DNA of 46,850 nucleotides. Source: a virus (Duplodnaviria; Caudoviricetes). Both the position numbers and the translations under genes were made by a program. The notes beneath the pieces are model-generated. The model saw only the letters and a list, made by a program, of their open reading frames with translations, made no database searches and was not told where the DNA came from. Within the stretch, counting starts at the first letter, position 1. Every line of letters starts with the position of its first letter. This document shows positions 11,086-42,572 of this stretch, piece by piece. The stretch lies in the IMG/VR virus record IMGVR_UViG_3300028594_000069, positions 1 to 46,850 of that record; one strand, given 5' to 3'.

Positions 11086-11637
11086 ATGGCGGAAGAGGTT
11101 ATTAAAATCGGATTAACCGGTAAAATGCGTAGCGGAAAGGATTCCGTAGCTGATCGCTTGTTCTTAGCGCACGACTTCAACGTGCCGTTGGCGTTCGGAA
11201 ATTCATTAAAATATTACGCTCATAAAATATTTCCGTGGGTTCCGAAAGAGCCGAAGCCTCGCGAGCTTTACCAATTCTTTAATGTCATGCGTGACTATGA
11301 TCCGGACGTATGGGTTAAACACCTCGCAAAAGACGTTGAATTGGCGGAGGACTCGCGCTCAACGAAAGGGTTAGTCGTAAAGGACGCAAGGCAACCGAAT
11401 GAAGTCGAATGGCTGCGAAACAACGGTTTTATCATCGTCAAGGTTATTGCTGACGAAACTCAACGAAAGCAGCGAATGCAAGAAGCCGGAGAATCGGACG
11501 AAGGGTTAGAGCACCCTACGGAAAAGTACGTAGAAGAGATTGACGCAGATTACGTACTTTATAACAACGGCAGCTTGGACGAGTTAGAGACGAAAGTTGA
11601 CGAAATGGTACAGGAAATAAAGGAGTGGAGCGAATGA
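11086..11637 (+). CDS. Deoxynucleoside monophosphate kinase-like P-loop protein
   Basis: GLTGKMRSGKD, DPDVWV, DARQPNE, HPTE, NNGSLDEL. Confidence 0.8.
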   Translation: MAEEVIKIGLTGKMRSGKDSVADRLFLAHDFNVPLAFGNSLKYYAHKIFPWVPKEPKPRELYQFFNVMRDYDPDVWVKHLAKDVELAEDSRSTKGLVVKDARQPNEVEWLRNNGFIIVKVIADETQRKQRMQEAGESDEGLEHPTEKYVEEIDADYVLYNNGSLDELETKVDEMVQEIKEWSE

Positions 11638-13103
11638 ACAACAAGTTTAAGTACGTTTCTTTATTCAGTGGCGTTGGCGGATTCGAGCAGGCGTTAGATA
11701 AACTCGGAGGTAAATGTGTACTCGCTTCGGAAATAGATAAATTCGCTTCTAGGGCTTACGCTACTCTATACGGTGATGAAGTATTACACGGAGACGTGAC
11801 ACAAATAGACGCAAAAGACGTTCCCGATCACGACTTACTCGTAGGAGGTTTTCCTTGCCAATCGTTCTCGGTTGCTGGACAGCGAGGAGGATTCGAAGAT
11901 GCGCGCGGTACTTTATTCTTCGAAGTCGCGCGTATTGCTTCTGAAAAGCAACCTAGCGTATTACTTTTAGAGAACGTTAAAGGACTCGTAGGGCACGACA
12001 AAGGGAAAACGTTAGATACGATTGTTAAGACGCTTAATGAGATCGGCTATCGCGTAGACTTCAACGTGCTTAATTCGAAATACTTCGGTGTGCCGCAGAA
12101 CAGAGAACGTATCTTTATCGTTGCTGTTCGTGAGGATTTGACTAAGAACGAGCCGTGGAATAATACGAAGGGAACAACGGCAGTTCCAAAAGGTAAGCGT
12201 AGAATTAGCGGATATGAGGACGTTAAAACATTTAACTTCAATTGGCCGGAACAAGACGAAGTAACGACGAGATTGCGCGACATATTAGAGCCGGAAGTGG
12301 ACGAAAAGTATTATTTGAGTGAGGACAAAACGGCAAAATTAGTCAAGCAATTGAACGATGGTTTAGCGATAAAAGAAGCGACCTCGAAGGGTTACGCCGT
12401 AGCGACAGAAGGAGACGCTGTTAATTTTCAGTTTCCGGACAGTACTACACGAAGAGGCCGTGTGGGCAATCAGATCGCAAATACATTGGAGGCCTCTTCA
12501 ATTAATCAAGGAGTAGTCGTGAAGGGCGCTGATCCTCAAATGATCGGACATGTTGACATAAAAGGGCACGACTCGGTTAAGCGCGTTTACTCTCCTTCTG
12601 GAGTTTCGCCAACCCTTACGACTATGGGCGGAGGACATCGTGAGCCAAAAATAGCAGAAGAAGTTGTAGGAGAGGTGCGCCCCGTGCTTACGCCCGATCG
12701 CTTAAACAAACGGCAGAACGGGCGTAGATTTAAAGATAACGACGAAGAAATGTTTACGCTGACTTCGCAAGATCGTCACGGCATAGCGTTGGGCTATGGT
12801 GACGTATTACAACGTTCGCAAAGCGGTGTATCGCAGAAAGACATTTACGGAACTCTTCGCGCAGGCGCAAGTCGGACAGATTTCGGAGTAGTTGACGAAG
12901 AGTATCCGAAAACATACCGAATCCGTAAGCTAACACCTCTAGAATGTTTCCGCCTACAAGGGTTTCCGGACGCTGTTCATAAAACGCTAGTAGACGCAGA
13001 CATCTCCGACTCTCAACGATATAAAATGGCGGGAAATGCCGTCACAGTCAACGTTATCGAATCGCTTGGGAGACGAATTTTAACGTACTTGGACGAAGCC
13101 TAA
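11634..13103 (+). CDS. dcm: Orphan C5-cytosine DNA methyltransferase, probably multispecific
   Basis: FSGVGG (I), GFPCQ (IV), ENV (VI), QNRER (VIII), RKLTPLECFRLQGF (IX), AGNAV (X); long variable region. Confidence 0.93.
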   Translation: MNNKFKYVSLFSGVGGFEQALDKLGGKCVLASEIDKFASRAYATLYGDEVLHGDVTQIDAKDVPDHDLLVGGFPCQSFSVAGQRGGFEDARGTLFFEVARIASEKQPSVLLLENVKGLVGHDKGKTLDTIVKTLNEIGYRVDFNVLNSKYFGVPQNRERIFIVAVREDLTKNEPWNNTKGTTAVPKGKRRISGYEDVKTFNFNWPEQDEVTTRLRDILEPEVDEKYYLSEDKTAKLVKQLNDGLAIKEATSKGYAVATEGDAVNFQFPDSTTRRGRVGNQIANTLEASSINQGVVVKGADPQMIGHVDIKGHDSVKRVYSPSGVSPTLTTMGGGHREPKIAEEVVGEVRPVLTPDRLNKRQNGRRFKDNDEEMFTLTSQDRHGIALGYGDVLQRSQSGVSQKDIYGTLRAGASRTDFGVVDEEYPKTYRIRKLTPLECFRLQGFPDAVHKTLVDADISDSQRYKMAGNAVTVNVIESLGRRILTYLDEA

Positions 13104-14460: not shown

Positions 14461-14685
14461 TTACTTTGCGTCCGGCTCGCCTTCGTCGGGTTCAAACGTA
14501 ATAATGTCGGACAACTCACAATTTAACACCTTGCACGAACGGTCTAACAGCTTAACGGGAATCCGCAGCGACTCGTTGTTATAAAATTGCCGCACGGATT
14601 CCGGCCTATGGTCGATCTCTCGCGCGAACGCACGCATTGACCAGCCCTGTTCGTCAAGTAGTTTCTTTAGGTGTACTTTAATCAT
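14461..14685 (-). CDS. XRE/Cro-C1 HTH repressor
   Basis: LKKLLDEQGWSMRAFAREID...LDRSCKVLNCELSDII; RBS GGGAGG. Confidence 0.85.
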   Translation of the reverse strand: MIKVHLKKLLDEQGWSMRAFAREIDHRPESVRQFYNNESLRIPVKLLDRSCKVLNCELSDIITFEPDEGEPDAK

Positions 14686-14726
14686 TTTAGTTCCTCCCAC
14701 GTCACCAACTATTTCCGACTAACTAT

Positions 14727-14755
14727 ATTCTACGTCAACACTCTACGCGAGTCAA
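14727..14755 (-). promoter_or_regulatory. sigma-A promoter of XRE gene with operator AACAC-N7-GAGTC
   Basis: TTGACT-17-TAGAAT; operator at 14737-14753. Confidence 0.7.
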
Positions 14756-14779
14756 CGAAAACTTTTTAACCAGAAATTC

Positions 14780-15076
14780 TCAATACTCTTCCGGAAATAA
14801 TACGGTCGTGTACGTCTCCTTTTCGTCATGGAGCCCGTCCGTTATGATCCATACTCTTTTTCCGCTTAGCTCATATGCAGACATGATCCGGCCTTCCTTA
14901 TTCCGTATGGCTCCCTCATTCAATTCCGCATCTTCTTCGGGAATGTCGCCCCAGTCTCCGGAGACATGTCTATCCAATAACGTGATAAGTTCGTTCATAC
15001 TTACGATATGTTCCTCCATATAACTATTTACACCAGCCGTCATTAATGTTCGTCCTACGTTAAATTTTACGTTCAT
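14780..15076 (-). CDS. Plasmid-associated small protein (RH..GDWG family)
   Basis: LLDRHVSGDWGD, RIMSAY, WIITD, TTVLFPEEY. Confidence 0.75.
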   Translation of the reverse strand: MNVKFNVGRTLMTAGVNSYMEEHIVSMNELITLLDRHVSGDWGDIPEEDAELNEGAIRNKEGRIMSAYELSGKRVWIITDGLHDEKETYTTVLFPEEY

Positions 15077-15089
15077 TTTCTCCGCCTCC

Positions 15090-15332
15090 TTAATTAATAG
15101 TAAAAGTAGAATACGCTATCAATAAAAGCAACGCAATCCCTAACGAAATACAGCCGTAAAAGCTTATCGCAGAGGGCCAATCTACAGGCTCGCCCGGCTC
15201 TACGTCAAAGAAGAAGTGATTTAGTTCCGTAAAAACCTCGCTTAGTATTCGTCTATATTCGCTTATAAAACGCTTGAATTCGTTGGACAAGGCCGTAAAT
15301 AAGGCCGCAAGTAATTCCGTCAGAACCGTCAT
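15090..15332 (-). CDS. Small protein with C-terminal TM helix
   Basis: RBS AAAGGAGG, hydrophobic C-terminus. Confidence 0.65.
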   Translation of the reverse strand: MTVLTELLAALFTALSNEFKRFISEYRRILSEVFTELNHFFFDVEPGEPVDWPSAISFYGCISLGIALLLLIAYSTFTIN

Positions 15333-15405
15333 GTTCTAACGCCCTCCTTTCCGCTTGTGCTTCCCGCAGACCACGCAAGTCCCATCGTAAATACTGATTC
15401 GGTGT

Positions 15406-15582
15406 TTATTCCGCAGCAGAAGAAGGAGAAGGGGAAGGGACGTCATTAACATGTTCCAATGCGCCTTCAACTACTCCGCGTATGTACCGGACATTGTTCT
15501 CGGAAATGTCAGCTGGCAAGTCGTCCGCGTTCTCCTCGGCGTACTTTAGGATCGTTATTAGATCGTTGTATAACTCGTTCAT
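15406..15582 (-). CDS. Small hypothetical protein (58 aa, MNELYNDL...), not in ORF track
   Basis: RBS AAGGAGG, ATGA overlap with upstream gene. Confidence 0.6.
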   Translation of the reverse strand: MNELYNDLITILKYAEENADDLPADISENNVRYIRGVVEGALEHVNDVPSPSPSSAAE

Positions 15583-15845
15583 TTTCTTAACGCCTCCTTA
15601 ATGATATTTAAACGTTCTTGCGCTTCTTCTTCCGTCTGAAAGCCGTCCTCAAATGCTTCATAGCCGTAACCTATTATCCATTCCTTGCGTTCTCCGGTAG
15701 GAGGGTTTCCGTACTCATCGTATGGTACAGCGTCCAAGTATATGACTTCTACGTCATCTCCAAATTCCTCGTGTTCTTCCTCGCTAGCTTCTGCAATGTT
15801 ACGGAAAATGTCTTTCCATTCGTTTAATGATAGTCGTCTGTTCAT
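15579..15845 (-). CDS. Small acidic hypothetical protein
   Basis: RBS AAAGGGAG, D/E-rich. Confidence 0.75.
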   Translation of the reverse strand: MNRRLSLNEWKDIFRNIAEASEEEHEEFGDDVEVIYLDAVPYDEYGNPPTGERKEWIIGYGYEAFEDGFQTEEEAQERLNIIKEALRK

Positions 15846-15866
15846 AGATTATTCGCTCCCTTTTCG

Positions 15867-16130
15867 TTAATTTTCGCTTACTACGTTCTCAAATACGGTT
15901 TTGGCTTGCGATATATCGTCAGCATCTATCGTAAAAGTAGTTCCGGCAATGTGTTCGGCTTCAATGAGCGAAACCTTGAAATAACTATCGCTTGCGTATT
16001 TTTTGAGTCCGGAGATAGTTTCCTCCGCCAGTTCTTGCGCTTTCTTCTTTTCGGTATAAAAGTCCGTGAACGACTGCCCTCCGTGCTGATTCTTTACAAC
16101 TAGGCCGTAATATGTTTTTGACTTGTTCAT
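15867..16130 (-). CDS. Hypothetical protein
   Basis: RBS AAAGGAG, 87 aa. Confidence 0.75.
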   Translation of the reverse strand: MNKSKTYYGLVVKNQHGGQSFTDFYTEKKKAQELAEETISGLKKYASDSYFKVSLIEAEHIAGTTFTIDADDISQAKTVFENVVSEN

Positions 16131-16163
16131 TGTAAACTCTCCTTTTTCGTTGGAATATTGATT

Positions 16164-16424
16164 TTATTTAATCTCAAAGTATTCTTCTGTACCATCTATC
16201 CACCATTCAGCCAAAGGCATACCATCTACATCAAAACAGATTCCATTGAAAACATCTTCATTTTCTGTAAAGTCTTTGTCTCCAAAATCGTACATTTCAA
16301 ATCCTTTGTGCCACAAAGCTAATGTTTCTTCTGTATGCTCTTGTAACTCTTCTCCATCATCTTTATTAGTGTAATAGCCATTGAATATGATATACTGTAC
16401 GTCTAATTTTTTTATTTTTTCCAT
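16164..16424 (-). CDS. Acidic hypothetical protein (CG-poor cassette-like gene)
   Basis: RBS AAAGGAG; stop codon lies inside TAAAA-N6 site. Confidence 0.75.
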   Translation of the reverse strand: MEKIKKLDVQYIIFNGYYTNKDDGEELQEHTEETLALWHKGFEMYDFGDKDFTENEDVFNGICFDVDGMPLAEWWIDGTEEYFEIK

Positions 16425-16459
16425 TGCTTATACTCTCCTTTTAAAATAAAGTATTGTTT

Positions 16460-16651
16460 TTATTGAAAGCTTACATCACTGTATCGTGCTTTAATATATT
16501 GACCTACCTTCTTTCTGCCTTTTATAACTTCTGTAATTTTAATCTCATATGAACCCGATTTAAATAACTCTGACCTTACTACTCCTCTATAATGAGTTCT
16601 TGGCGTAATTACCTCTGCAACTCTGCCTAGATTACTTGAGATACCGAACAT
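16460..16651 (-). CDS. Basic hypothetical protein (CG-poor cassette-like gene)
   Basis: RBS AAAGGAG; stop codon lies inside TAAAA-N6 site. Confidence 0.7.
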   Translation of the reverse strand: MFGISSNLGRVAEVITPRTHYRGVVRSELFKSGSYEIKITEVIKGRKKVGQYIKARYSDVSFQ

Positions 16652-16688
16652 TTCACATTCTCCTTTTGAATAAAATTATAGTTTTAAT

Positions 16689-17264
16689 TTACGCAAACGC
16701 CTTCGTAAAATCTACGGTATAAGCTACGTCCTTAAACAATTTGTATTCTTCGTTGACGTAATAACTACTGTCCATTCTTTCTTCTACGTAAAACTCTATG
16801 AAATATTCCTTCGCGTTGTCATCGTCCAGACAGTAATCGTCAAGAGCCTCCGTATATAACCTTTCCAACGCGTAAGCTATCTCATTCGCAACTAATTCTA
16901 CCTCTTCCTCTAGCTCGTCAAACTCGTCCGTGTTCACGTCAGTATACCTATATTCATCTGCTGTTTCTACGGCTCTTTCAACCATTTTCGAATACTTTTC
17001 CGGCAAAGGCTGCATGTCTTTATGTAGACGTTCATAAGCGTAAATGAATTCGCTCGCATCGCCTACTCTAAGATGTTGGTTTCGATTAAATTGGCCAATT
17101 GACCAAGAAGATAGCGAGTCTCTTAAATATTCTAAATGTTCCTCGATCCAAAACATTTCCGAGTCTGCCATATCGTCCATTACCATGCCTTGAAGCCTCG
17201 TGTTCTTGTCGTAAACTTTACGTAATTCCTCGTTCGTTAGTTCGTCAATAGTTCTCATTTTCAT
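16689..17264 (-). CDS. Acidic hypothetical protein
   Basis: 191 aa, D/E-rich, RBS AAAGGGAG. Confidence 0.8.
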   Translation of the reverse strand: MKMRTIDELTNEELRKVYDKNTRLQGMVMDDMADSEMFWIEEHLEYLRDSLSSWSIGQFNRNQHLRVGDASEFIYAYERLHKDMQPLPEKYSKMVERAVETADEYRYTDVNTDEFDELEEEVELVANEIAYALERLYTEALDDYCLDDDNAKEYFIEFYVEERMDSSYYVNEEYKLFKDVAYTVDFTKAFA

Positions 17265-17298
17265 TCGCTCCCTTTTCGATAGTTAAATTACGCCTTGC

Positions 17299-17357
17299 TT
17301 GAGGCGTTTTCCCACCGCTTGAACCTTCACTATTCAAACGGCAGGAGAGCGCCTCAA
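17299..17357 (-). other. Long irregular intergenic hairpin (candidate RNase III processing site)
   Basis: TTGAGGCG...TTGAA / TTCAA...CGCCTCAA, about 25-bp stem. Confidence 0.5.
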
Positions 17358-17402
17358 ACGCTCTATATTCGCCTGTAAACCGCCTTGTAAGCCGCCTGTA
17401 AT

Positions 17403-17963
17403 TCATGCGTTGCGTTTAAATTCGTACCACAAGTCGCTAACTATTCCTTCCAACCGTTCGTGAGACAGATTTTCCGCATTTCCATAACCGTTAATCCAGT
17501 AATATTCGTCATTCATATAGTCGATACCGGCCAAGAAGAATTTAACGCCTTGCCAACCGCGCGAATCCGCTTGTTGTTTCACAAGTTCGTCCAGTTCTTC
17601 ATCACTTACAATATCCTGCACGTATTCGCCTATGTCTGAATTTACGGTGTTTTCAAGTTCAAACGCAAAGTCGATCACGTCTCCGGCGTCGTAACTGCCG
17701 ACAATAATCGATTCTGGTACGTTCATATCTTCTAATCTTTCCGATAGTTCATTCAGTAGCAGCAGGCTTTCATTTTCTCCGATTTCGAACGGCGCTTCAT
17801 AGTCGCTTATAAAATGTTCCTCATATTCGCTTCCCGGTGCTACGTTTATTTCCTCAAAAGCTTCGTCTAATTCTTCGCTTGTTGCCGGAAGTTCCAGCCA
17901 CGTATAAACCAGTTCACCTTCGTTATATTTACCTAAATTCGTCAATGCTATTTTAATACTCAT
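17403..17963 (-). CDS. ardA: Antirestriction protein ArdA
   Basis: IALTNLGKYNEGELVYTWLELP...EYEEHFISDYEAPF, highly acidic. Confidence 0.85.
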   Translation of the reverse strand: MSIKIALTNLGKYNEGELVYTWLELPATSEELDEAFEEINVAPGSEYEEHFISDYEAPFEIGENESLLLLNELSERLEDMNVPESIIVGSYDAGDVIDFAFELENTVNSDIGEYVQDIVSDEELDELVKQQADSRGWQGVKFFLAGIDYMNDEYYWINGYGNAENLSHERLEGIVSDLWYEFKRNA

Positions 17964-18129
17964 TTCTATTCCTCCCGCCTTTCACTTCGATTTCAACGTC
18001 ATTTCTAAACCGTTTCGTTACGCCTCGTTTAACTTCGAACATAAATTGATGCATTTGCAACGGAGAAGCCTCCGAGACTGTTTTGCGATCAATTTCCGTT
18101 CCGTGTACCTTTGCAATAAGTATTTTCAT
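17953..18129 (-). CDS. Small hypothetical protein (58 aa, MKILIAKV...), not in ORF track
   Basis: RBS AAGGAGG; 3' end overlaps ardA start. Confidence 0.6.
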   Translation of the reverse strand: MKILIAKVHGTEIDRKTVSEASPLQMHQFMFEVKRGVTKRFRNDVEIEVKGGRNRNEY

Positions 18130-18263
18130 TTATTACGCCTCCTTGTTTTTTGGCTTATTTTCGCCTCGCTACGTTCAATCTTGCACCAAACCTTCGTTAG
18201 TCTTCATCATATTACGTCTAAATTCGTCAAATTGAACGCACCAAGCCGGGAACAAGCCGGCAA

Positions 18264-18527
18264 TTAATTTATTTCGCCATACTCGCTCACTATTTGCGCT
18301 CCACATTCGTTACATGTCAATGGCGAGCCTTCCCAATGGACGAACGCTCCCTCCACCTCGTCTATCGTCAACCATTCGTTGTTGCCTTCGTGAACATCAG
18401 TCGCGCAGTCGTCGCATATTACGTTACCGTACGTATCAAGGAATGTTAGATCATATCCTCCTACGCTTGCATAAGTCTTCATATGCCCGTCTTCTCGTAC
18501 TAACTTACTTACCTCTACTAATTCCAT
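18264..18527 (-). CDS. Small Zn-binding hypothetical protein
   Basis: CDDC and CNEC pairs; RBS AAAGGGAG. Confidence 0.75.
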   Translation of the reverse strand: MELVEVSKLVREDGHMKTYASVGGYDLTFLDTYGNVICDDCATDVHEGNNEWLTIDEVEGAFVHWEGSPLTCNECGAQIVSEYGEIN

Positions 18528-18618
18528 TTTAATTCGCTCCCTTTCAGATGTGTTTCGTTATGTTTCGCTTATACTTCGTTTTACTTCGCTTACATAGCGC
18601 GCTTGCTTCGCTTAGCTG

Positions 18619-18970
18619 CACGCTTTAGAACGTTCAAACGTTCGCTTGGCCTTCGCTTGCCTCGTTCCGCTTGGCCTTCGCTTACTTCCTTGTCGTCCAG
18701 TTTCCGCAGGTGATAAAGTGCTTACCTTCGAGCAACTCTACGTCAATGGCCTCCGATCCGTGGATCGCTGCTTGCGTTCCCAGCCCGCTTGTCATCGCGT
18801 AACTCATTTTTACCGCTTGAGTTGGCGTTACCTTTTCGTCAAAATGCATTTCTTCTTCCGTTATTAGGTTATATACTACTCGCATTTTATCGCCTTCCCT
18901 TCGTTATTCTTTCGTCAAATTTCGTCTAACTTCGTTAAAATAAGCGTCAGTTTGAACGTTCTAAAGCGTG
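18619..18970. repeat. Perfect 21-bp inverted repeat (18619-18639 / 18950-18970) enclosing ORF 18682-18885
   Basis: CACGCTTTAGAACGTTCAAAC versus GTTTGAACGTTCTAAAGCGTG. Confidence 0.9.
18682..18885 (-). CDS. Hypothetical protein, first gene of early operon
   Basis: RBS AGGGAAGG, 67 aa. Confidence 0.65.
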   Translation of the reverse strand: MRVVYNLITEEEMHFDEKVTPTQAVKMSYAMTSGLGTQAAIHGSEAIDVELLEGKHFITCGNWTTRK

Positions 18971-19213: not shown

Positions 19214-19242
19214 AGTTTAACACGTCTCGTTTACCGTGTCAA
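19214..19242 (-). promoter_or_regulatory. Early sigma-A promoter P1
   Basis: TTGACA-17-TAAACT, A-rich UP region, operator GTCTC-N7-GTGTC. Confidence 0.75.
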
Positions 19243-19324
19243 CTCTTTTTTAAAACTTTCTTTAAAACTTTTTGTTTTCCCGTTTGGGCTGGCGTTGAAG
19301 CCGTTTCCCTAACGTTGTATCTCT

Positions 19325-19353
19325 ACTATAGCGTGTCTCTTTTAACGAGTCAA
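19325..19353 (-). promoter_or_regulatory. Early sigma-A promoter P2
   Basis: TTGACT-17-TATAGT, operator GTCTC-N7-GAGTC. Confidence 0.8.
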
Positions 19354-19434
19354 TACCTTTTCGAGAAACTTTTTAACTTTTTTCTCAGCCGTTAGGAAGC
19401 GTTTGGATTTCGTTTCCTTTTCGACTGTAAAATC

Positions 19435-19463
19435 ATTGTAGCACGTCTCTTTTAACGAGTCAA
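19435..19463 (-). promoter_or_regulatory. Early sigma-A promoter P3
   Basis: TTGACT-17-TACAAT, operator GTCTC-N7-GAGTC. Confidence 0.8.
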
Positions 19464-19587: not shown

Positions 19588-19909
19588 GTTTTTCCGATTC
19601 TCAAAAACGGCCAAATATACGCAAATAACGGCAAATCAGTCGAATTTAAAACGGCAGCAGGTTCGAACAAGGACGGCTGAAAGGCGACATGGCGCACGTT
19701 TGTAGGGTTCGATTGAAAAATAACGTAAAACTTTTTCTCTTGTTTTCGTCCTTTTCCGGATATTTTCGTCAGTTTCCTCCATATTCGCAAAGTCAAGGAA
19801 AATATTTTCGTTTTGATGGTTACATTTCACATTGTTGACCGGCTATATATATGAGGGAGGAAGGGAGAAAGGGCGATAGATAACGTATAGCACTTGCGTA
19901 AGGACTTGC

Positions 19910-20360
19910 GTTAATAGAACGTAAAGAGCATACGTGATAGAACGTTAGTTAAATCGTTAGATAACGTTCCAATTCGATATAATCGGTATCCTTCGAAACT
20001 ATTCGAATATATACGTTATCACTAAAAGATATATCGCAAGTGAACTGAACTTCGTTCACTTGCAAGTTATCGAACTTCAGATAACTTTGAACAAGTACTT
20101 TCAAGTACTTACGAATATGTTCGATTCTCTTCGATAGTAGATAATAGCACGTAATAGAACGTAAGTATACGGTACAATCCGCAGGTTACGTATTAGAACG
20201 TAATAAGCCGTAATACCACGTAATAGATCGAAACATACATCGTAATATAGGACGCAAGTATACGTTAAATGTGTAATCGACATAAAGGACGCATTTATCC
20301 GACTCCAGAACGAACTGTAAACGCAAGATATATACGTAAGATAAACGTAATAGAACGGCA
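19910..20360. repeat. Degenerate ~10-bp repeats (consensus CGTAATAGAA) plus tandem inverted repeats
   Basis: e.g. 20141 ATAATAGCACGTAATAGAACGTAAG; 20189 CGTATTAGAACGTAATAAGCCGTAATACCACGTAATAGATCG; 20346 CGTAATAGAACG. Confidence 0.65.
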
Positions 20361-20894
20361 GGAATACGTCATATTTTCGACTGTTAAAACGTGTTCCTTC
20401 ATTATATGTCGAATACAAAGCGAACAGAAGGACGCAGAGGGAACGTAGATGTTTCGTAAGGGAATACGTAGGTATGAAGATAACGGACGTATGTATGACG
20501 TTGTGTGCCGTATATAGATACATGTTTACACGTAGATGAATACGGCAGGATATAGCAGAGGATTGTCGTAGGTGATGCCGTATGTATCTATCGACTGACT
20601 GGCGATTCCCTGGCGACTATCTAGCGACTGTATAACGTACAATACCAGCCGAGCCGTTCACGAGGGACGTAAGTCCGAAACATCGAGGGACGTCATTTAT
20701 CGGACACCTAGACGACTCCCAGCCGTTTCTTATACGTTGTTTCTATACATTTTCTATGCAAACTTACGGCAAACCAACGCATAAACAAACGTTGATATAA
20801 CGCCATCTATCCGATGCATAAAATAATTGACGAATACATAGACGGCAGAAAGTGGCGAAAAAGCCGTCATACCAACGTTTCTAGCGATTCATCG

Positions 20895-20923: not shown

Positions 20924-21185
20924 GGATATACGTTAAAATGAATATTTATACGGCATAGGGCGGGGGGCATGTTCAGCCGGACTCGCCTGCCGGGTAGGGT
21001 CTAATTTCGTACAAAATTTTTAAAAGTCGAAGCAAATTTCGGAACTACCTCCGGAACCCTTTCGAAGCAACCTAGCGTAAGAATAACGTAAGAATAACGC
21101 ACCAACAGCTTAACATCTCCGGAGGCCATGCGCAAGCAAGACGCAAGCAAGACGAAATCATAACGCAACAAAGCCGGAAAGAACG

Positions 21186-21252: not shown

Positions 21253-21780
21253 TTACAAGCAAAGCATTTCGTAAGACTCGTCGATATTCTCTTGGTTAAT
21301 TCCGATGTATCTTAACGTCTCCTTTTCGGAGGAATGGTTAAGCATACGCATGACTAAGCCAATGTTATTCGTTTTCTTGTACGTAAAGTAGCCTGCCGTT
21401 TTTCGGAGCGAGTGACAGCCGAACTTTAAGTCGGTTAAGCCTGCTCGTTTAGCGGCGTCGTTAAGTACGCGGTAAGCTTGTACGCGACTTATCGGCTGGC
21501 CGCCCTTCCGAGACGGAAATAGATAGCCTTCCTTCGGAGCTAGTTCGCGGATAGCTTTCTTGGCTACGGAGTTTAAGGCGATTCGCTTATACTTGTCCGT
21601 TTTGGACTCGTAGAGCGTTAAGTAATCCCCGGAAACATCTTCGGCCTTTAGCGTTAACAAGTCGGAGATGCGAAGCGCGGTATTAATTCCGAGAGTAAAT
21701 AGTAGGAGGTTGCGCCCGTGCAACGCTTTCTTAATTTTGTTTATATCCCGTTTGCTGCGGATAGGTTCGACGATATTCAT
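21253..21780 (-). CDS. Small catalytic-domain-only tyrosine recombinase (resolvase-type)
   Basis: ALRISDLL (R), ESKTDK (K), HSLRKT, LNHSS, TLRYIG; ATG 21780 after AAAGGAG. Confidence 0.92.
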   Translation of the reverse strand: MNIVEPIRSKRDINKIKKALHGRNLLLFTLGINTALRISDLLTLKAEDVSGDYLTLYESKTDKYKRIALNSVAKKAIRELAPKEGYLFPSRKGGQPISRVQAYRVLNDAAKRAGLTDLKFGCHSLRKTAGYFTYKKTNNIGLVMRMLNHSSEKETLRYIGINQENIDESYEMLCL

Positions 21781-21839
21781 AATTGAATGCAACTCCTTTT
21801 CGAATATGTTCAAATAAGTTACGTTCGTGATCTATTTTC

Positions 21840-37748: not shown

Positions 37749-40700
37749 ATGATTCATATAACAGATGCGAAAACTGACGTAATACAAGCGGTAATCACCG
37801 AAGAAAATGTATTAGAAGACGTTCACAGGCAGTCTTTAGAAGACACGCTGGAAACGTTCGACTTTACGGTATTTGGCGTGGAAGATTTTATTCCGTTGCT
37901 TGAAAAGAGGAACCGAGTAATTATTCCGGACGAAGACTTCGGATACCGAGAGTTCATTATTGAGGAAACGATCAAGTACCGAGATGGAGACGAAATATTC
38001 GTAGAGGTTTATTCAGTCGCAAGTTATCTCGAATTAAAGAAAGCGAGAGTTATCGAACCTCAAGTCCTTAGGGAATATAACGTATCGGCTGCGACGGCCT
38101 TCGCGCTACGGGATTCGGAATGGAGAGTAGGCGTTATCGAAAAGGATAATTACCGAACTTTCCGTATCGAGACTTACCGAAACCCATACGCCTTCTTAAA
38201 AACGATTGCTAGTACGTTCGACCTCGAATTGAGATTCCGCGTAGAAACAGACGGAAAAAAGGTTACGGATAGATTCGTTGACCTCGTAGAACAGGTCGGA
38301 GAATGGCGCGGGAGAGAAATCGAATTTGGTAGCGATCTTCTCGGAATTGAGCGTATCGAAAACACCGAAGATATTGTCACGGCATTGCATGGAATCGGGC
38401 CGGAACGTGAGGACGGATCAAGGATCGAAGTAGTTGTCGAGGACGAGGACGCTCTACAACGATGGGGACGAGAAGACAAAGTTACCGGAAATTTACGCCA
38501 TTTAATCGAGACGTACGAACCTACGTCAGAACGTTCGGAAATGACGGAAGAAGAATTACGCCAATATACTCGTACGGCTCTTAATAACCGGATCAATGAA
38601 ATAGTAACCTATACGGCAGATATAGCTGACCTCGAACACGTTCCGGGCTTATCGAACAAGAAAATACGTTTCGGAGACACGTTGAAGATTAAGGATACAG
38701 CGTTTAATCCTCCGTTATATTTAGAGGCGCGCGTATTCGAGCAAGAGCGTAGCATATTCGGCCAAGAAGAAAAACGTATCAAACTCGGAGATTTCACGGA
38801 ATATACCGAGGAAGAAGTACAGTCGATATGGCAATCGCTTCAAAACCAAATCCGAGCAAAGATAAGCTGGGAAGACGCCACACAAGCGATCTATCTTAAA
38901 GAAGAAGTAGACGCCAAGACTGAGCCGGGAATTGAGGCGAAAGAAAAGCTCGACCGTGACGTAGGAGAAGCCGTTGTTGAGTCAACGACAGGAGCGCAAG
39001 ATAAGGCGGACTCTTCTGCCGAAGCAGCAAAGAACGAAGCCATCGAACATACCGACGGAATTGCCGAGCTATTGGACGGAAGGATTAATGACGTTCAAGT
39101 TTCTGCGGATAGTAAGAATACGATTTACCGAGGAGAAGTCGAGCCTTCCTTGGCGCACGTTGACGACCTTTGGTACAAGCCGACAGAAAACGGCGAAACG
39201 GAAATGTATCAGTACGTCGAGCGCGAAGATGGATCAACCGGCTGGGAGAACGTATTTAATACGGAAGAAGTTTCGAACCTTGAGGACGAAGTTTCTAATG
39301 CTCGCGAGTATACCGACGAAGAGGTTGCCGCCGTACGTTCGGCGCTGCAAGGCGAACTAAGCGATCAGATTGGCGATGTTAACGCAGAAATCTCCGGACT
39401 GGAAGACGTTCAATCCGATTTAACCGGGCGCGTGAGTGCTGCCGAAGGATTGCTCGATAGCCATGACGGAAAGTTTTCCGATTATGACGTAAAGTTCAAC
39501 GAGATCGACGGCGAATTAACGGCTCATTTCGAAGAGATGGAGCGTTTAGAAGACGGCATTCAAGCGAACTCTACGGAGATTGAGACGACGGCTGAAGGGA
39601 TTAACGCGACGATTGACGATTTTAGGGCGGAGTATGACGACGATAAAACAGATATTTTATCGAGCATTTCTAGTAACGAATCGGAAATTACCGCGATGGC
39701 TGACGAGATTAGTGCGAGGGTTACGAGAGATGAATTTGAGAACCTTGAGATTGGCGGAAACAACTTGGCTTCGCTGGATAGTCTTGGGACGTGGGAGACA
39801 CCTTGGATAAGAGATGGATATGTATTTCAGTTGAGACCAAGCGAAATAGGAAGGTCGGGTATAAGAATAGATAGCAGCATCTTCGAAGAGGGAAAGCATT
39901 ATGTTCTTTCTTATAAAATGAAGAAGATAAGCGGCGAAATTACCTCTATCGGAGGGCACAACGATATAGGTCGTCACACTAAAGGTTTGTTCATTGATGG
40001 TGAAAATGTTAGCTCAAGATATAGAGCCGATTATCCTAATGACGACAAAACACATGAGATTGAATATTACTTTGAAGTAGTTGATTTGTCTGCCTCCGAT
40101 CCTGACCTTTATATTCAACCTAATCGCGGTTATTATGTTTATGAGTACGAGGCTGACATTTGGGACGTTCAAGTTGAGGAAGGTAATAAGAAGACAAAAT
40201 GGAATCCTTCTTACAAAGACACGCAATCACAAATTGATTCGGCAGTAAGTCGCATCACCTCCACCGAAGCAACTCTCGATATTCACGCAGACGCAATCGA
40301 AGCACGAGTACACCAAGACGAGTTAGAAAATTACGTTGACAAGCAAGTTTATAACGATAGAATGTCCGAATTAACCGTTGATATTGACGGAATAAGCAGT
40401 GACGTAAGTAGCTTACAAACGGAAGTAGATAACGCAACTGATGAAATAACTTCCGTACAATCTTTCGCTTCTTCTATCGATCAAAAAGCGGATCAAATAT
40501 CGTCTAATGTTACATCTTTGAGTGACGACTTGGATACGACCAATAGAAATGTTTCTAATATCGACCAGAAAGCCGACAGTATTCAAAGTACGGTTAGTGC
40601 GATTGAAACGGACGTTAGTGGACTGGAAAGTGATATGTCTGCTGTTCAAACGGATATATCTCAAATGCCGGATCAAATTAGCCTAGCTGTTAGTGAAGGT

Positions 40701-42572
40701 ATTGAAGGGATAGATGTTGGTGGGCGGAATTTACTTAACTCTGACACGTTGTCGGGTTGGAGCAGTGGTTACGATAGACAAGGCGATGTATTTTATTTAG
40801 AAGGTACTAATGCAGGAATAAGAATATTGCCCGCAACATTTGAAAAATTTACCGACTATGTTATGTCCTTTAAAATAAGAAAAACTAGCGGAACAATAAA
40901 GAATATTGCGGGGCACGCAACCGGATTTGTTACCAATAAGGTTTTAATAGACGGAGAAGAGACAGGTGATTCGTGGAGTGGTGGAGGCAATAACCCTTAT
41001 CCTGACGACGAAGAAACTCATACTGTCGAAGTGTATATAAGATGGAATGACAGCGATCAAACGGGGCTATACATTCAACCCAACAGGGCTTCATACAACG
41101 ATGATTATACAGCTGAAATATGGGATTTGCAGTTAGAAAAAGGAAACAAACGAACAGACTGGACTCCAGCCCCCGAGGATCAAGTCAATAAAACTAATGT
41201 TTTATCGAGTATTAACCTATCGACCGAAGGCGTCCGTATAGCCGGCGATAAGCTCGAACTTGACGGAGATGTAAACGTAACTGGCTCGTTCAAAGTAGGC
41301 GACGCCAACATCGACTCCCTTAGCGCGGACAAACTCACGGTCGGCTCCACGCTCGACGCACAAGAAGTACGCATAATCAACATGGACGCAAGCAATATCG
41401 TAACTGGCGAACTCGACGCATTGGACGTAACGATTAAAAACTTGACGGCAAATGACGTTAACTTTACCGGACATGTTTTCGGTGGAGATGCGACGTTTGA
41501 AGGAAGAGTTCGAGGTGGTTCGATAGAACAGTTCGGGGACGAAGGATCAATAACGATTGATAATAACGGATTCCGTTTCGAAACAGAAGACGGAAGTATT
41601 GAAATGGATACGAATGAGGTTGTCGGTACCGCGGCTTCCAGCTCAGCGTCACTTATTTTCGAGGCTTCGGGAAATTACGGCAGAATGGAAATTCTCCAAG
41701 ATCAAGCGAATTCCGTAATAAATTCGGATTCAACTATGACTATTCGAGCGGGGTTATTAAACCTTTATTCTTCATCTACTACGTATATCTCAGGCGATTT
41801 AAGTATGAACAACGGAGATTTAACTGTAGGCAACGGAGATATATCAAGCGGATCGCAAATAACCTCTACTCGGTCAAGTATTTCTGGAGGTTTTTCAGCG
41901 GCGCACAACGAGGAGGCCGCTACACAAGATCGAATTCACGTATTAACAGCGCACAATACGAGAGGTTATATGGTCGTATATCCGCAAAGGTACACCGGCG
42001 AGGACGTATTCAGAATTCGATCTCACCACGAAAAAGGTGATTATCGCAACGATTTCCGAATAGACGAAAACCGATATATCAGAGCGCCGGGAATATATTA
42101 TAGTACGACTACTAACTCGGCAAACTTACGTGTAGGGACGTCAGCAGGTCGGATTACTCGGAATACTTCTCTTCGAAAGTATAAGTTAGACGTTGAATCG
42201 GCGAAAAATCCTTACCGAATATTAAACCTTGACGCTAGAACATGGTTTGATAAAGGAGATGTTGAACGTTTTGCCGAGGAGTTGGACAAGAAGGCAATAG
42301 GTGAGGATTACGACTTCGAGGACGTAGAGCATATTAAACGAATCGGAGGTTTAATTGCCGAAGAAGTCGTAGAAGCTGGGCTGGAAACTTATGCGGAGTA
42401 TGACGAGGACGGAGAATTAGTCGGAGTTGCATACGACCGTATTTGGACATTACTCATTCCGATTGTTCGGGATCACCAACGAGAGATCGAAGACTTACGT
42501 ACGGAAAATCAGCTTTTATGGAACGAGATACAAATTATAAAGGAGCGTATTTCAAATGAAACAACAGGTTAA
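37749..42572 (+). CDS. Tal/tail spike with two CBM-like modules and C-terminal intramolecular chaperone (S74-like)
   Basis: N-terminal Tal domain, coiled coils, two GGxNL...EEGNK/EKGNK..W modules, TSLRKYK chaperone start, GLIAEEV, VAYDRI. Confidence 0.88.
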   Translation: MIHITDAKTDVIQAVITEENVLEDVHRQSLEDTLETFDFTVFGVEDFIPLLEKRNRVIIPDEDFGYREFIIEETIKYRDGDEIFVEVYSVASYLELKKARVIEPQVLREYNVSAATAFALRDSEWRVGVIEKDNYRTFRIETYRNPYAFLKTIASTFDLELRFRVETDGKKVTDRFVDLVEQVGEWRGREIEFGSDLLGIERIENTEDIVTALHGIGPEREDGSRIEVVVEDEDALQRWGREDKVTGNLRHLIETYEPTSERSEMTEEELRQYTRTALNNRINEIVTYTADIADLEHVPGLSNKKIRFGDTLKIKDTAFNPPLYLEARVFEQERSIFGQEEKRIKLGDFTEYTEEEVQSIWQSLQNQIRAKISWEDATQAIYLKEEVDAKTEPGIEAKEKLDRDVGEAVVESTTGAQDKADSSAEAAKNEAIEHTDGIAELLDGRINDVQVSADSKNTIYRGEVEPSLAHVDDLWYKPTENGETEMYQYVEREDGSTGWENVFNTEEVSNLEDEVSNAREYTDEEVAAVRSALQGELSDQIGDVNAEISGLEDVQSDLTGRVSAAEGLLDSHDGKFSDYDVKFNEIDGELTAHFEEMERLEDGIQANSTEIETTAEGINATIDDFRAEYDDDKTDILSSISSNESEITAMADEISARVTRDEFENLEIGGNNLASLDSLGTWETPWIRDGYVFQLRPSEIGRSGIRIDSSIFEEGKHYVLSYKMKKISGEITSIGGHNDIGRHTKGLFIDGENVSSRYRADYPNDDKTHEIEYYFEVVDLSASDPDLYIQPNRGYYVYEYEADIWDVQVEEGNKKTKWNPSYKDTQSQIDSAVSRITSTEATLDIHADAIEARVHQDELENYVDKQVYNDRMSELTVDIDGISSDVSSLQTEVDNATDEITSVQSFASSIDQKADQISSNVTSLSDDLDTTNRNVSNIDQKADSIQSTVSAIETDVSGLESDMSAVQTDISQMPDQISLAVSEGIEGIDVGGRNLLNSDTLSGWSSGYDRQGDVFYLEGTNAGIRILPATFEKFTDYVMSFKIRKTSGTIKNIAGHATGFVTNKVLIDGEETGDSWSGGGNNPYPDDEETHTVEVYIRWNDSDQTGLYIQPNRASYNDDYTAEIWDLQLEKGNKRTDWTPAPEDQVNKTNVLSSINLSTEGVRIAGDKLELDGDVNVTGSFKVGDANIDSLSADKLTVGSTLDAQEVRIINMDASNIVTGELDALDVTIKNLTANDVNFTGHVFGGDATFEGRVRGGSIEQFGDEGSITIDNNGFRFETEDGSIEMDTNEVVGTAASSSASLIFEASGNYGRMEILQDQANSVINSDSTMTIRAGLLNLYSSSTTYISGDLSMNNGDLTVGNGDISSGSQITSTRSSISGGFSAAHNEEAATQDRIHVLTAHNTRGYMVVYPQRYTGEDVFRIRSHHEKGDYRNDFRIDENRYIRAPGIYYSTTTNSANLRVGTSAGRITRNTSLRKYKLDVESAKNPYRILNLDARTWFDKGDVERFAEELDKKAIGEDYDFEDVEHIKRIGGLIAEEVVEAGLETYAEYDEDGELVGVAYDRIWTLLIPIVRDHQREIEDLRTENQLLWNEIQIIKERISNETTG
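39643..41213 (+). repeat. 26-bp direct repeats (22/26 identical) with TAAAA-N6-TTTTA core at 39643-39668 and 41188-41213
   Basis: ATAAAACAGATATTTTATCGAGCATT and ATAAAACTAATGTTTTATCGAGTATT, 1545 bp apart (in frame). Confidence 0.75.

Follow-up and report, generated by a model that had tools for sequence, protein, structure and literature searches.

How did two small, CpG-poor genes come to lie in a gene run of an otherwise CpG-rich phage, and what part do the three short palindromes around them play? The window (the whole stretch of 46,850 nucleotides analysed here) is an 80%-complete virus record with a GC content of 44.7% and a CpG observed/expected ratio (o/e) of 1.65. Its large terminase is 59% identical to that of phBC6A51 and 56% to that of Mgbh1; the phage is thus not SPbeta-like, but a CpG-rich, Bacillus-type siphovirus related to phBC6A51 and Mgbh1. 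A first-pass annotation had read the two genes as promoterless one-gene cassettes, inserted by site-specific recombination at TAAAA-N6-TTTTA sites downstream of strong early promoters, in a phage analogue of an integron array.

The foreign block and its three sites

The two genes and their surroundings are listed in Table 1.

Table 1. Features of the block, its neighbours and the tyrosine recombinase of the window, in the direction of transcription of the block (aa, amino acids; RBS, ribosome-binding site).
Feature	Position	Strand	Remarks
186-aa tyrosine recombinase	21253-21813		4.6 kb from block; sole PF00589 match in window
Three tandem sigma-A-type promoter matches	19214..19463	minus	10/12 each; pointing at gene run
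ArdA antirestriction gene	17403..17963	minus	same gene run; Pfam PF07275, E 1.9e-17
191-aa acidic gene, host-type	16689..17264	minus	PHROG 14286; CpG o/e 1.78
Site s3	16671..16686	minus	TAAAA-CTATAA-TTTTA, 0 mismatches; upstream edge of block
RBS of 63-aa gene, AAAAGGAG	16660..16667	minus	from sequence
63-aa basic protein	16460..16651	minus	homologues in SPbeta-like phages
Site s2	16447..16462	minus	TAAAA-ACAATA-CTTTA, 1 mismatch; left arm = stop of 63-aa gene
RBS of 86-aa gene, AAAAGGAG	16435..16442	minus	from sequence
86-aa acidic protein	16164..16424	minus	23 D+E, 7 K+R; unnamed family
Site s1	16151..16166	minus	TAAAA-TCAATA-TTCCA, 2 mismatches; left arm = stop of 86-aa gene
Host-type AACGAAA + RBS of next gene	16139..16151	minus	begins at last base of s1
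87-aa gene, host-type	15867..16130	minus	no family found; CpG o/e 1.66

In composition, the 536-bp stretch of the two genes is foreign to the phage, as was proposed at first. The original counts hold, with 6 CG dinucleotides in 16151-16686 and 5 in the next 60 bp, the window median being 41 per 500 bp; CpG o/e is 0.36 in the 86-aa gene and 0.79 in the 63-aa gene, against 1.47-2.05 in 12 other genes scored, and their GC contents are 0.32 and 0.34, respectively. Markov models trained on host-family DNA and on SPbeta-like DNA single out the block in the window: it alone scores strongly as donor DNA, with 35-45 nats, and the next best segment reaches at most 11.

The edges of the block were located as change-points under four such models. 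Upstream, the median falls at 16686-16687, i.e. on s3 (95% range about 16593-16744 over the four models). Downstream, it falls at about 16108 (95% range 16061-16159), with s1 at the rim of the range and the peak about 45 bp past s1, in the start of the 87-aa gene, which counts against an edge at s1. The AACGAAA and RBS that follow s1 are a habit of the host family and point to a junction at s1: CGAA occurs at most 9 nt from the RBS in 14 of 62, 15 of 84 and 10 of 70 host-family genes, against 4 of 232 in the motif-rich genome G028. The 45 nt upstream of the 87-aa gene resemble host DNA and the sequence ahead of the 86-aa gene equally well (the latter with a score of 15, which about 1-1.5% of donor pairs attain), and from the latter resemblance the RBS of the 87-aa gene may be donor-derived. 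Neither end carries a remnant of a donor neighbor: s3 follows the host stop codon after no more than 2 bases, and AACGAAA stands directly at s1. We consider s1 the probable downstream edge. What makes this window useful is that composition delimits the captured block to nearly a single base, where the genome has no site array of its own.

The observation of palindromic sites bounding two CpG-poor genes holds. The three related 16-bp sites of the first-pass annotation are present, with 0, 1 and 2 mismatches in s3, s2 and s1, so that only s3 matches TAAAA-N6-TTTTA perfectly; the distances from site to site are 224 and 296 bp, as given there for the units, and the intergenic gaps in the block are shorter than 45 nt. 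That the TAA stop of each gene forms the left arm of the next site is true of s2 and s1 but not of s3, the left arm of which lies 2 bases from the stop of the upstream 191-aa gene. The right arm of s1, TTCCA, which the first-pass annotation took for that of a secondary target, directly precedes the host-type AACGAAA and RBS; it may also be a donor arm, as a single change separates it from TTTCA, which ranks second in frequency among donor arms (50 of 160), and s2, inside the block, is degenerate as well.

Chance could have produced the palindromes if the genes were native, or from an unrelated AT-rich source, and their TAA stops lay in A/T-rich spacers; two of the three sites indeed contain mismatches, and in two left arms three bases belong to the stop codon. 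When the intergenic stretches of the three sites are shuffled with the stops kept, the P values are 0.008, 0.046 and 0.045, and jointly 1.6e-5, which rises to about 1e-3 once some 60 gene boundaries are allowed for, the motif having been picked post hoc. Three sites at consecutive boundaries are unlikely to be due to chance and, as homologues of the 63-aa gene were found only in motif-rich genomes and there between sites, this explanation is largely refuted and scarcely credible.

The strict pattern is found three times in the whole window, a mild enrichment only (at least three in 1 of 100 shuffles). The two copies besides s3, at 39644-39659 and 41189-41204, both fall within the gene of a 1607-aa tail protein, close to stretches somewhat low in CpG (39726-40239 and 40926-41205), and are probably chance matches within swapped tail modules.

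For the 63-aa protein the predicted fold is an SH3/KOW-like barrel, which we take as a lead only. For the 86-aa protein there is no Pfam or PHROG family and no usable atlas match, and Foldseek, run at E 0.001, pairs its confident model (pLDDT 87) with no structure of PDB or BFVD; its 24 sequence matches include one relative at 74% identity and about 18 more distant short ones, 17 sequences being aligned. Repeated searches, including one of 46 records, found no genomic locus for its homologues. Judging only from the position beside ArdA and from acidity, the cargo probably encodes early host-takeover or anti-defense proteins.

The block is transcribed in the direction of three sigma-A-type consensus matches 2.5-2.8 kb upstream, which bears out the upstream promoters of the first reading at the level of consensus matches only, the scan returning 15 matches over the region where 11.0 are expected. 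No minus-strand terminator match was found between these promoter matches and the block, and no promoter match within the block exceeds 9/12, each unit being a promoterless RBS and ORF. The 17-bp spacers of the three promoter matches are mutually alike (GTTAAAA.GAGAC-like), possibly a repeated operator.

The wider neighborhood has several features of its own. From 15406 to 17963, a run of strongly acidic small proteins lies beside ArdA (48 D+E against 21 K+R in the 191-aa protein, 24 against 10 in an 88-aa one), which are candidates for DNA mimics or anti-defense proteins; the 191-aa family also has members in Bobb, phiAGATE and Bp8p, close to where these genomes end. Between two small genes at 18540-18690 there are short repeats of the type GCGAAGGCCAAGCG, and about 1 kb at 19880-20800 is without a convincing gene and abundant in ACGT and TACG words. 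A 492-aa protein at 11625-13103 resembles, to judge from its motifs, a DNA cytosine methyltransferase with a long insert. The window contains no tRNA.

The motif in SPbeta-like phages and in relatives of the window phage

A link of the motif to SPbeta-like phages, suggested in the first-pass annotation, is borne out by counts: there are 36 TRAAA-N6-TTTYA sites in SPbeta against 3 controls, and strict sites number 20 against 2 in the SPbeta-like G028, 30 against 3 in G049, and 22 against 1 in G050. Ten SPbeta-like sets have 30-75 sites per genome or part, with 1-13 at 5-bp and 1-8 at 7-bp spacing; six of these sets (G008, G010, G015, G021, G022, G023) were reached via a motif search and have at least one site by construction. 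Conservation extends over 5-6 bp per arm. With up to two mismatches allowed, sites precede the RBS of 64 of 232 genes in G028, against 0 of 84 in G001 and 3 of 70 in Mgbh1, the two CpG-rich relatives, which have no strict site at all; in the part of G050 available, sites stand at 31 of 74 gene starts. Over 80 TerL-related loci (1.0 Mb) the motif is below control (28 against 55), and a strict match is found in 19 of 35 records, at about the control level. Such sites are characteristic of SPbeta-like genomes, and rare in CpG-rich relatives of the window phage.

Homologues of the 63-aa gene, retrieved by a protein search blind to the motif, occur at three loci in two independent contexts. In G028 the homologue is flanked by GGAAA-CAACGA-TTTCA and TCAAA-ACAGTA-TTTTA, the upstream flank being two changes away from TRAAA-N6-TTTYA; in G049 and G050 it is flanked by AAAAA-TCTACA-TTTTA and TAAAA-TTTGCA-TTTTA, its stop forming the left arm. 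The neighboring genes differ in all three settings, and the check proposed at the outset, the same flanks around homologues in unrelated arrays, yields sites on both sides at three of three loci (two of two contexts). A weak 63-aa match in G047 (E 0.017) was dropped, as it lies inside a long gene.

Arrays of YAAAA-N6-TTT-type sites are also seen in phBC6A51 and in prophages that align to it (L254-L266, about 8-14 kb in oriented loci), which are terminase relatives of the window phage. The order of the spacers recurs from array to array, and a given spacer can be followed by different genes; host assignment of these prophages is by likeness to phBC6A51 only. In this branch 6-bp spacing occurs at 21 of 351 gene starts, 5-bp spacing at 4 and 7-bp spacing at 0; the neighbor test is marginal (6 of 8 against 8 of 25, P 0.047), and the pooled end test weak (46 of 448 against 6.6%).

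Elsewhere in the CpG-rich relatives, 19 CpG-poor islands were found; six rows have a near site, and none shows the three-site pattern. Single CpG-poor genes of G001 end at their stop codon and are followed by host-type DNA, with no downstream site. At 15550-16550 of L141 (G001), CpG-poor small genes carry, ahead of the RBS, what look like remnants of degenerate sites. In G074, two strict sites lie inside a long gene and were not counted as further captures.

Among the SPbeta-like relatives, gene exchanges tend to end at the sites. Alignment ends fall at 97 of 173 site-bearing but only 111 of 741 site-free boundaries in the ten sets; these related genomes are not independent, and their accessory regions are both variable and rich in sites, which confounds the comparison. 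The excess is found in SPbeta alone (13 of 20 against 19 of 109, P 3.5e-5), as well as in G015 and in G049 taken singly, and when G049 is aligned with G050, 14 of 34 ends fall on a site in the one genome as well as in the other. Sites stand in register at only 70 of 468 distinct alignment ends; at 62 of these 70 the 6-bp spacer is identical (32 of 35 at starts, where the downstream side is shared, and 30 of 35 at ends, where the upstream side is shared). Neighboring sites, on the other hand, share their spacer in 2 of 300 cases, against 57 of 10796 for distant ones. Swapped blocks in these relatives thus begin and end at sites of the same spacer, and the expectation that swaps end at sites is supported there. 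Partners that share a spacer, and neighbors that do not, fit block replacement as the rule, with single-site insertion or deletion as the exception.

The exception is represented by one pair: G050 has one site (57853-57868) where G049 has two spacer-matched sites around about 600 bp (62543-63168; a 596-bp insert), in backbones that are 99.7% identical. This is the only spacer-matched duplication among 11 clean indels, five of which have a site at the junction and six none, with sites at both ends of the insert in two.

Mode of entry and candidate recombinases

The explanation we favor, and hold to be somewhat the more probable, is that an SPbeta-like phage donated the two genes as one block, the crossovers lying at or within s3 and s1. 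In its three palindromes the block has copies of the sites that stand between accessory genes of such phages, and they likely act as crossover joints. The arms would be bound as a dimer site on double-stranded DNA, with strand exchange requiring identity of the spacer, and blocks flanked by unlike sites would be replaced between co-resident phages instead of being excised as circles. In a cell with both phages, the block would have crossed in where host sequence resembling a site lay between the 191-aa gene and the 87-aa gene, each gene of the block bringing its own RBS and being transcribed from the early promoters upstream.

The spacers of the block bear on the one-gene circles, inserted in turn, of the first reading. 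Those of s2 and s1 share five of six bases, a match seen in 0.5-0.75% of donor pairs (about 2% over three comparisons), and the empty and filled sites of G050 and G049, as well as units with an RBS of their own and no promoter, are what circles would leave. The spacer of s3 shares only two of six bases with s2 and with s1, however; adjacent donor sites are not alike in their spacers, matched duplication is confined to the one clean indel, and none of six 71-nt folds forms an attC-like hairpin (z -0.65 to +0.37). Sequential circles could hold for the 86-aa gene, with its 5/6 flanks, not for the 63-aa gene, with its 2/6 flanks; for the block as a whole we consider them unlikely. The foreign origin, the SPbeta link, the flanks of the 63-aa gene and the upstream promoters of the first-pass annotation are supported, and circles as a rule are not.

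A more serious competitor leaves the sites no part in the event: untargeted or microhomology recombination with an SPbeta-like donor, followed by trimming to whole genes, would have brought in the palindromes as passengers, for example as binding sites of a regulatory or DNA-organizing protein. Since sites stand at about four in ten gene starts in the part of G050 analysed, any capture of whole genes tends to end near one; G001 has neatly trimmed CpG-poor genes without a downstream site, the TTCCA of s1 is a single change from a common donor arm, and SPbeta itself offers a precedent in the operator SPBRE of MrpR, a repressor with a recombinase fold (PMC10516654). Such an entry does not account for the lack of donor remnant at both ends of the block, and a role in binding alone does not predict the spacer shared at 62 of 70 swaps. 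We regard it as rather unlikely, though the foremost of the alternatives.

An allele without the block was sought among relatives. A blastn search with 14500-18500 against cultured phages gave no match, and the 191-aa gene was found in no viral contig; metagenome contigs hold it at two loci, one of which (L006) has homologues of ArdA, the 191-aa and the 88-aa proteins in this order, without the 63-, 86- and 87-aa genes. The 80 TerL-related loci and 20 further stretches contain no homologues of the 191-, 87-, 86- and 63-aa genes. As no relative with the 191-aa gene adjoining the 87-aa gene was found in cultured phages, viral or metagenome contigs, we infer the junctions and do not see them. The joint of an excised form is missing from the contigs of one run; these are contigs only, possibly of the window's own source, and no evidence of absence.

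Which enzyme could act on the sites? The phage has a tyrosine recombinase of its own, in cis to the block (Table 1), in which R, K, H-x-x-R, H and Y follow one another as expected (residue set as tabulated in PMC10516654), and which might have captured the genes at these sites. It has the length of a catalytic domain, with the catalytic residues present, and the RBS suggests a start at 21780. G001, however, carries a 70% identical copy and no strict site, and the motif-rich SPbeta, G028, G049 and G050 have no close homologue, such being confined to G001 and G052 among 27 records; capture by this enzyme is very improbable.

Just past the end of this gene, the assembly of run X1 has a branch point at 20960-21044, a 61-bp contig of depth 157 to which contigs of depth 20-25 join from unrelated sequence on both sides; an attachment site or a genome end could account for it, as could sequence common to this and another phage.

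Under the favored entry from an SPbeta-like phage, the enzyme would be supplied in trans, and the foremost candidate for it is the YopP-type tyrosine recombinase of these phages. SPbeta integrates via a serine recombinase, SprA (PMC8270828; 10.1101/2021.11.22.469490). Its PF00589 match is yopP, and YopP-like proteins are found in nine of the ten SPbeta-like sets (the tenth being covered over 60 kb only) and in none of the host-family sequences examined. As PF00589 has no match in the array-bearing prophages G055 and G060, an enzyme of this kind would have to be capable of action in trans. In SPbeta YopP and in the G049 protein, H-x-x-K stands in place of H-x-x-R, the usual motif of tyrosine recombinases; on this sequence evidence YopP may be an inactive binder like MrpR. 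Alternatively, short-homology annealing could operate at the 16-bp sites, and recombination over an identical 16-bp site would obey the same spacer rule as site-specific exchange.

As a more tentative extension, Bacillus phages may have a natural cassette-exchange system, in which the 6-bp spacer would act as an address and a YopP-like recombinase would swap accessory blocks between equivalent slots, crossing between phage families: with whole arrays into phBC6A51-like prophages, and here into a CpG-rich phage via cryptic sites.

Comparison with known systems

Literature searches, which reach neither subscription papers nor figures nor bioRxiv supplements, returned no description of the motif. 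Among the closest known systems are the PeSL cassettes of T4-type phages, which consist of promoters plus terminator stem-loops; like the present sites, they are repeated intergenic elements, and in hypervariable early regions they mark where small genes have been inserted, deleted or replaced (Arbiol et al. 2010, PMC2839356). Swapping of genes between relatives at such a repeated element is seen in the SPbeta-like phages, this locus excepted. The present site differs in being 16 bp long, with two 5-bp arms and a free 6-bp spacer, without promoter or hairpin, and in spanning phage families.

The pdif sites of plasmids have inverted arms around a short spacer. In Acinetobacter, they enclose adaptive genes between short sites in accessory regions, and are dif-like substrates of host XerC/XerD (PMC6449649); the present arms are much shorter, and symmetric. 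Compared with XerC/XerD arms of about 11 bp around 6 bp, the 6-bp spacing is strict and conservation covers 5-6 bp per arm.

Integron cassettes, found also in phages (PMC9892861), resemble the block as tandem promoterless units of RBS and ORF behind a promoter. The proposed analogy ends there, and the block is not an integron: attC hairpin and IntI are missing, attI appears to be absent as well, and the relatives show mostly same-spacer replacement. IntI is also much longer than the 186-aa recombinase of the window.

SPBRE is a 15-bp operator at about ten promoters of SPbeta, bound by MrpR, a protein of tyrosine-recombinase fold (PMC10516654). The site described here occurs 36 times in SPbeta and abuts stops and RBSs; it is set apart from SPBRE by length, number and position only. 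The gain of small accessory genes by phages is mostly ascribed to blind or homeologous recombination (PMC2327257).

The rule on spacers has a counterpart in the laboratory: arms of 13 bp are engineered there, and the likeness lies in the rule of spacer identity. We found no natural phage counterpart of such heterospecific exchange in literature searches. In recombinase-mediated cassette exchange with heterospecific lox or FRT sites, identity of the spacer decides which sites recombine, and unlike flanks lead to exchange without excision. If the same is true here, an addressable joint common to unrelated Bacillus phages would allow directed exchange, which could be tested in SPbeta; YopP would gain a candidate function, and there would be a rule for finding mobile anti-defense genes. 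This window adds to the known systems an instance of capture, with sharp boundaries, by a phage of another family, and the arrays in phBC6A51-like prophages.
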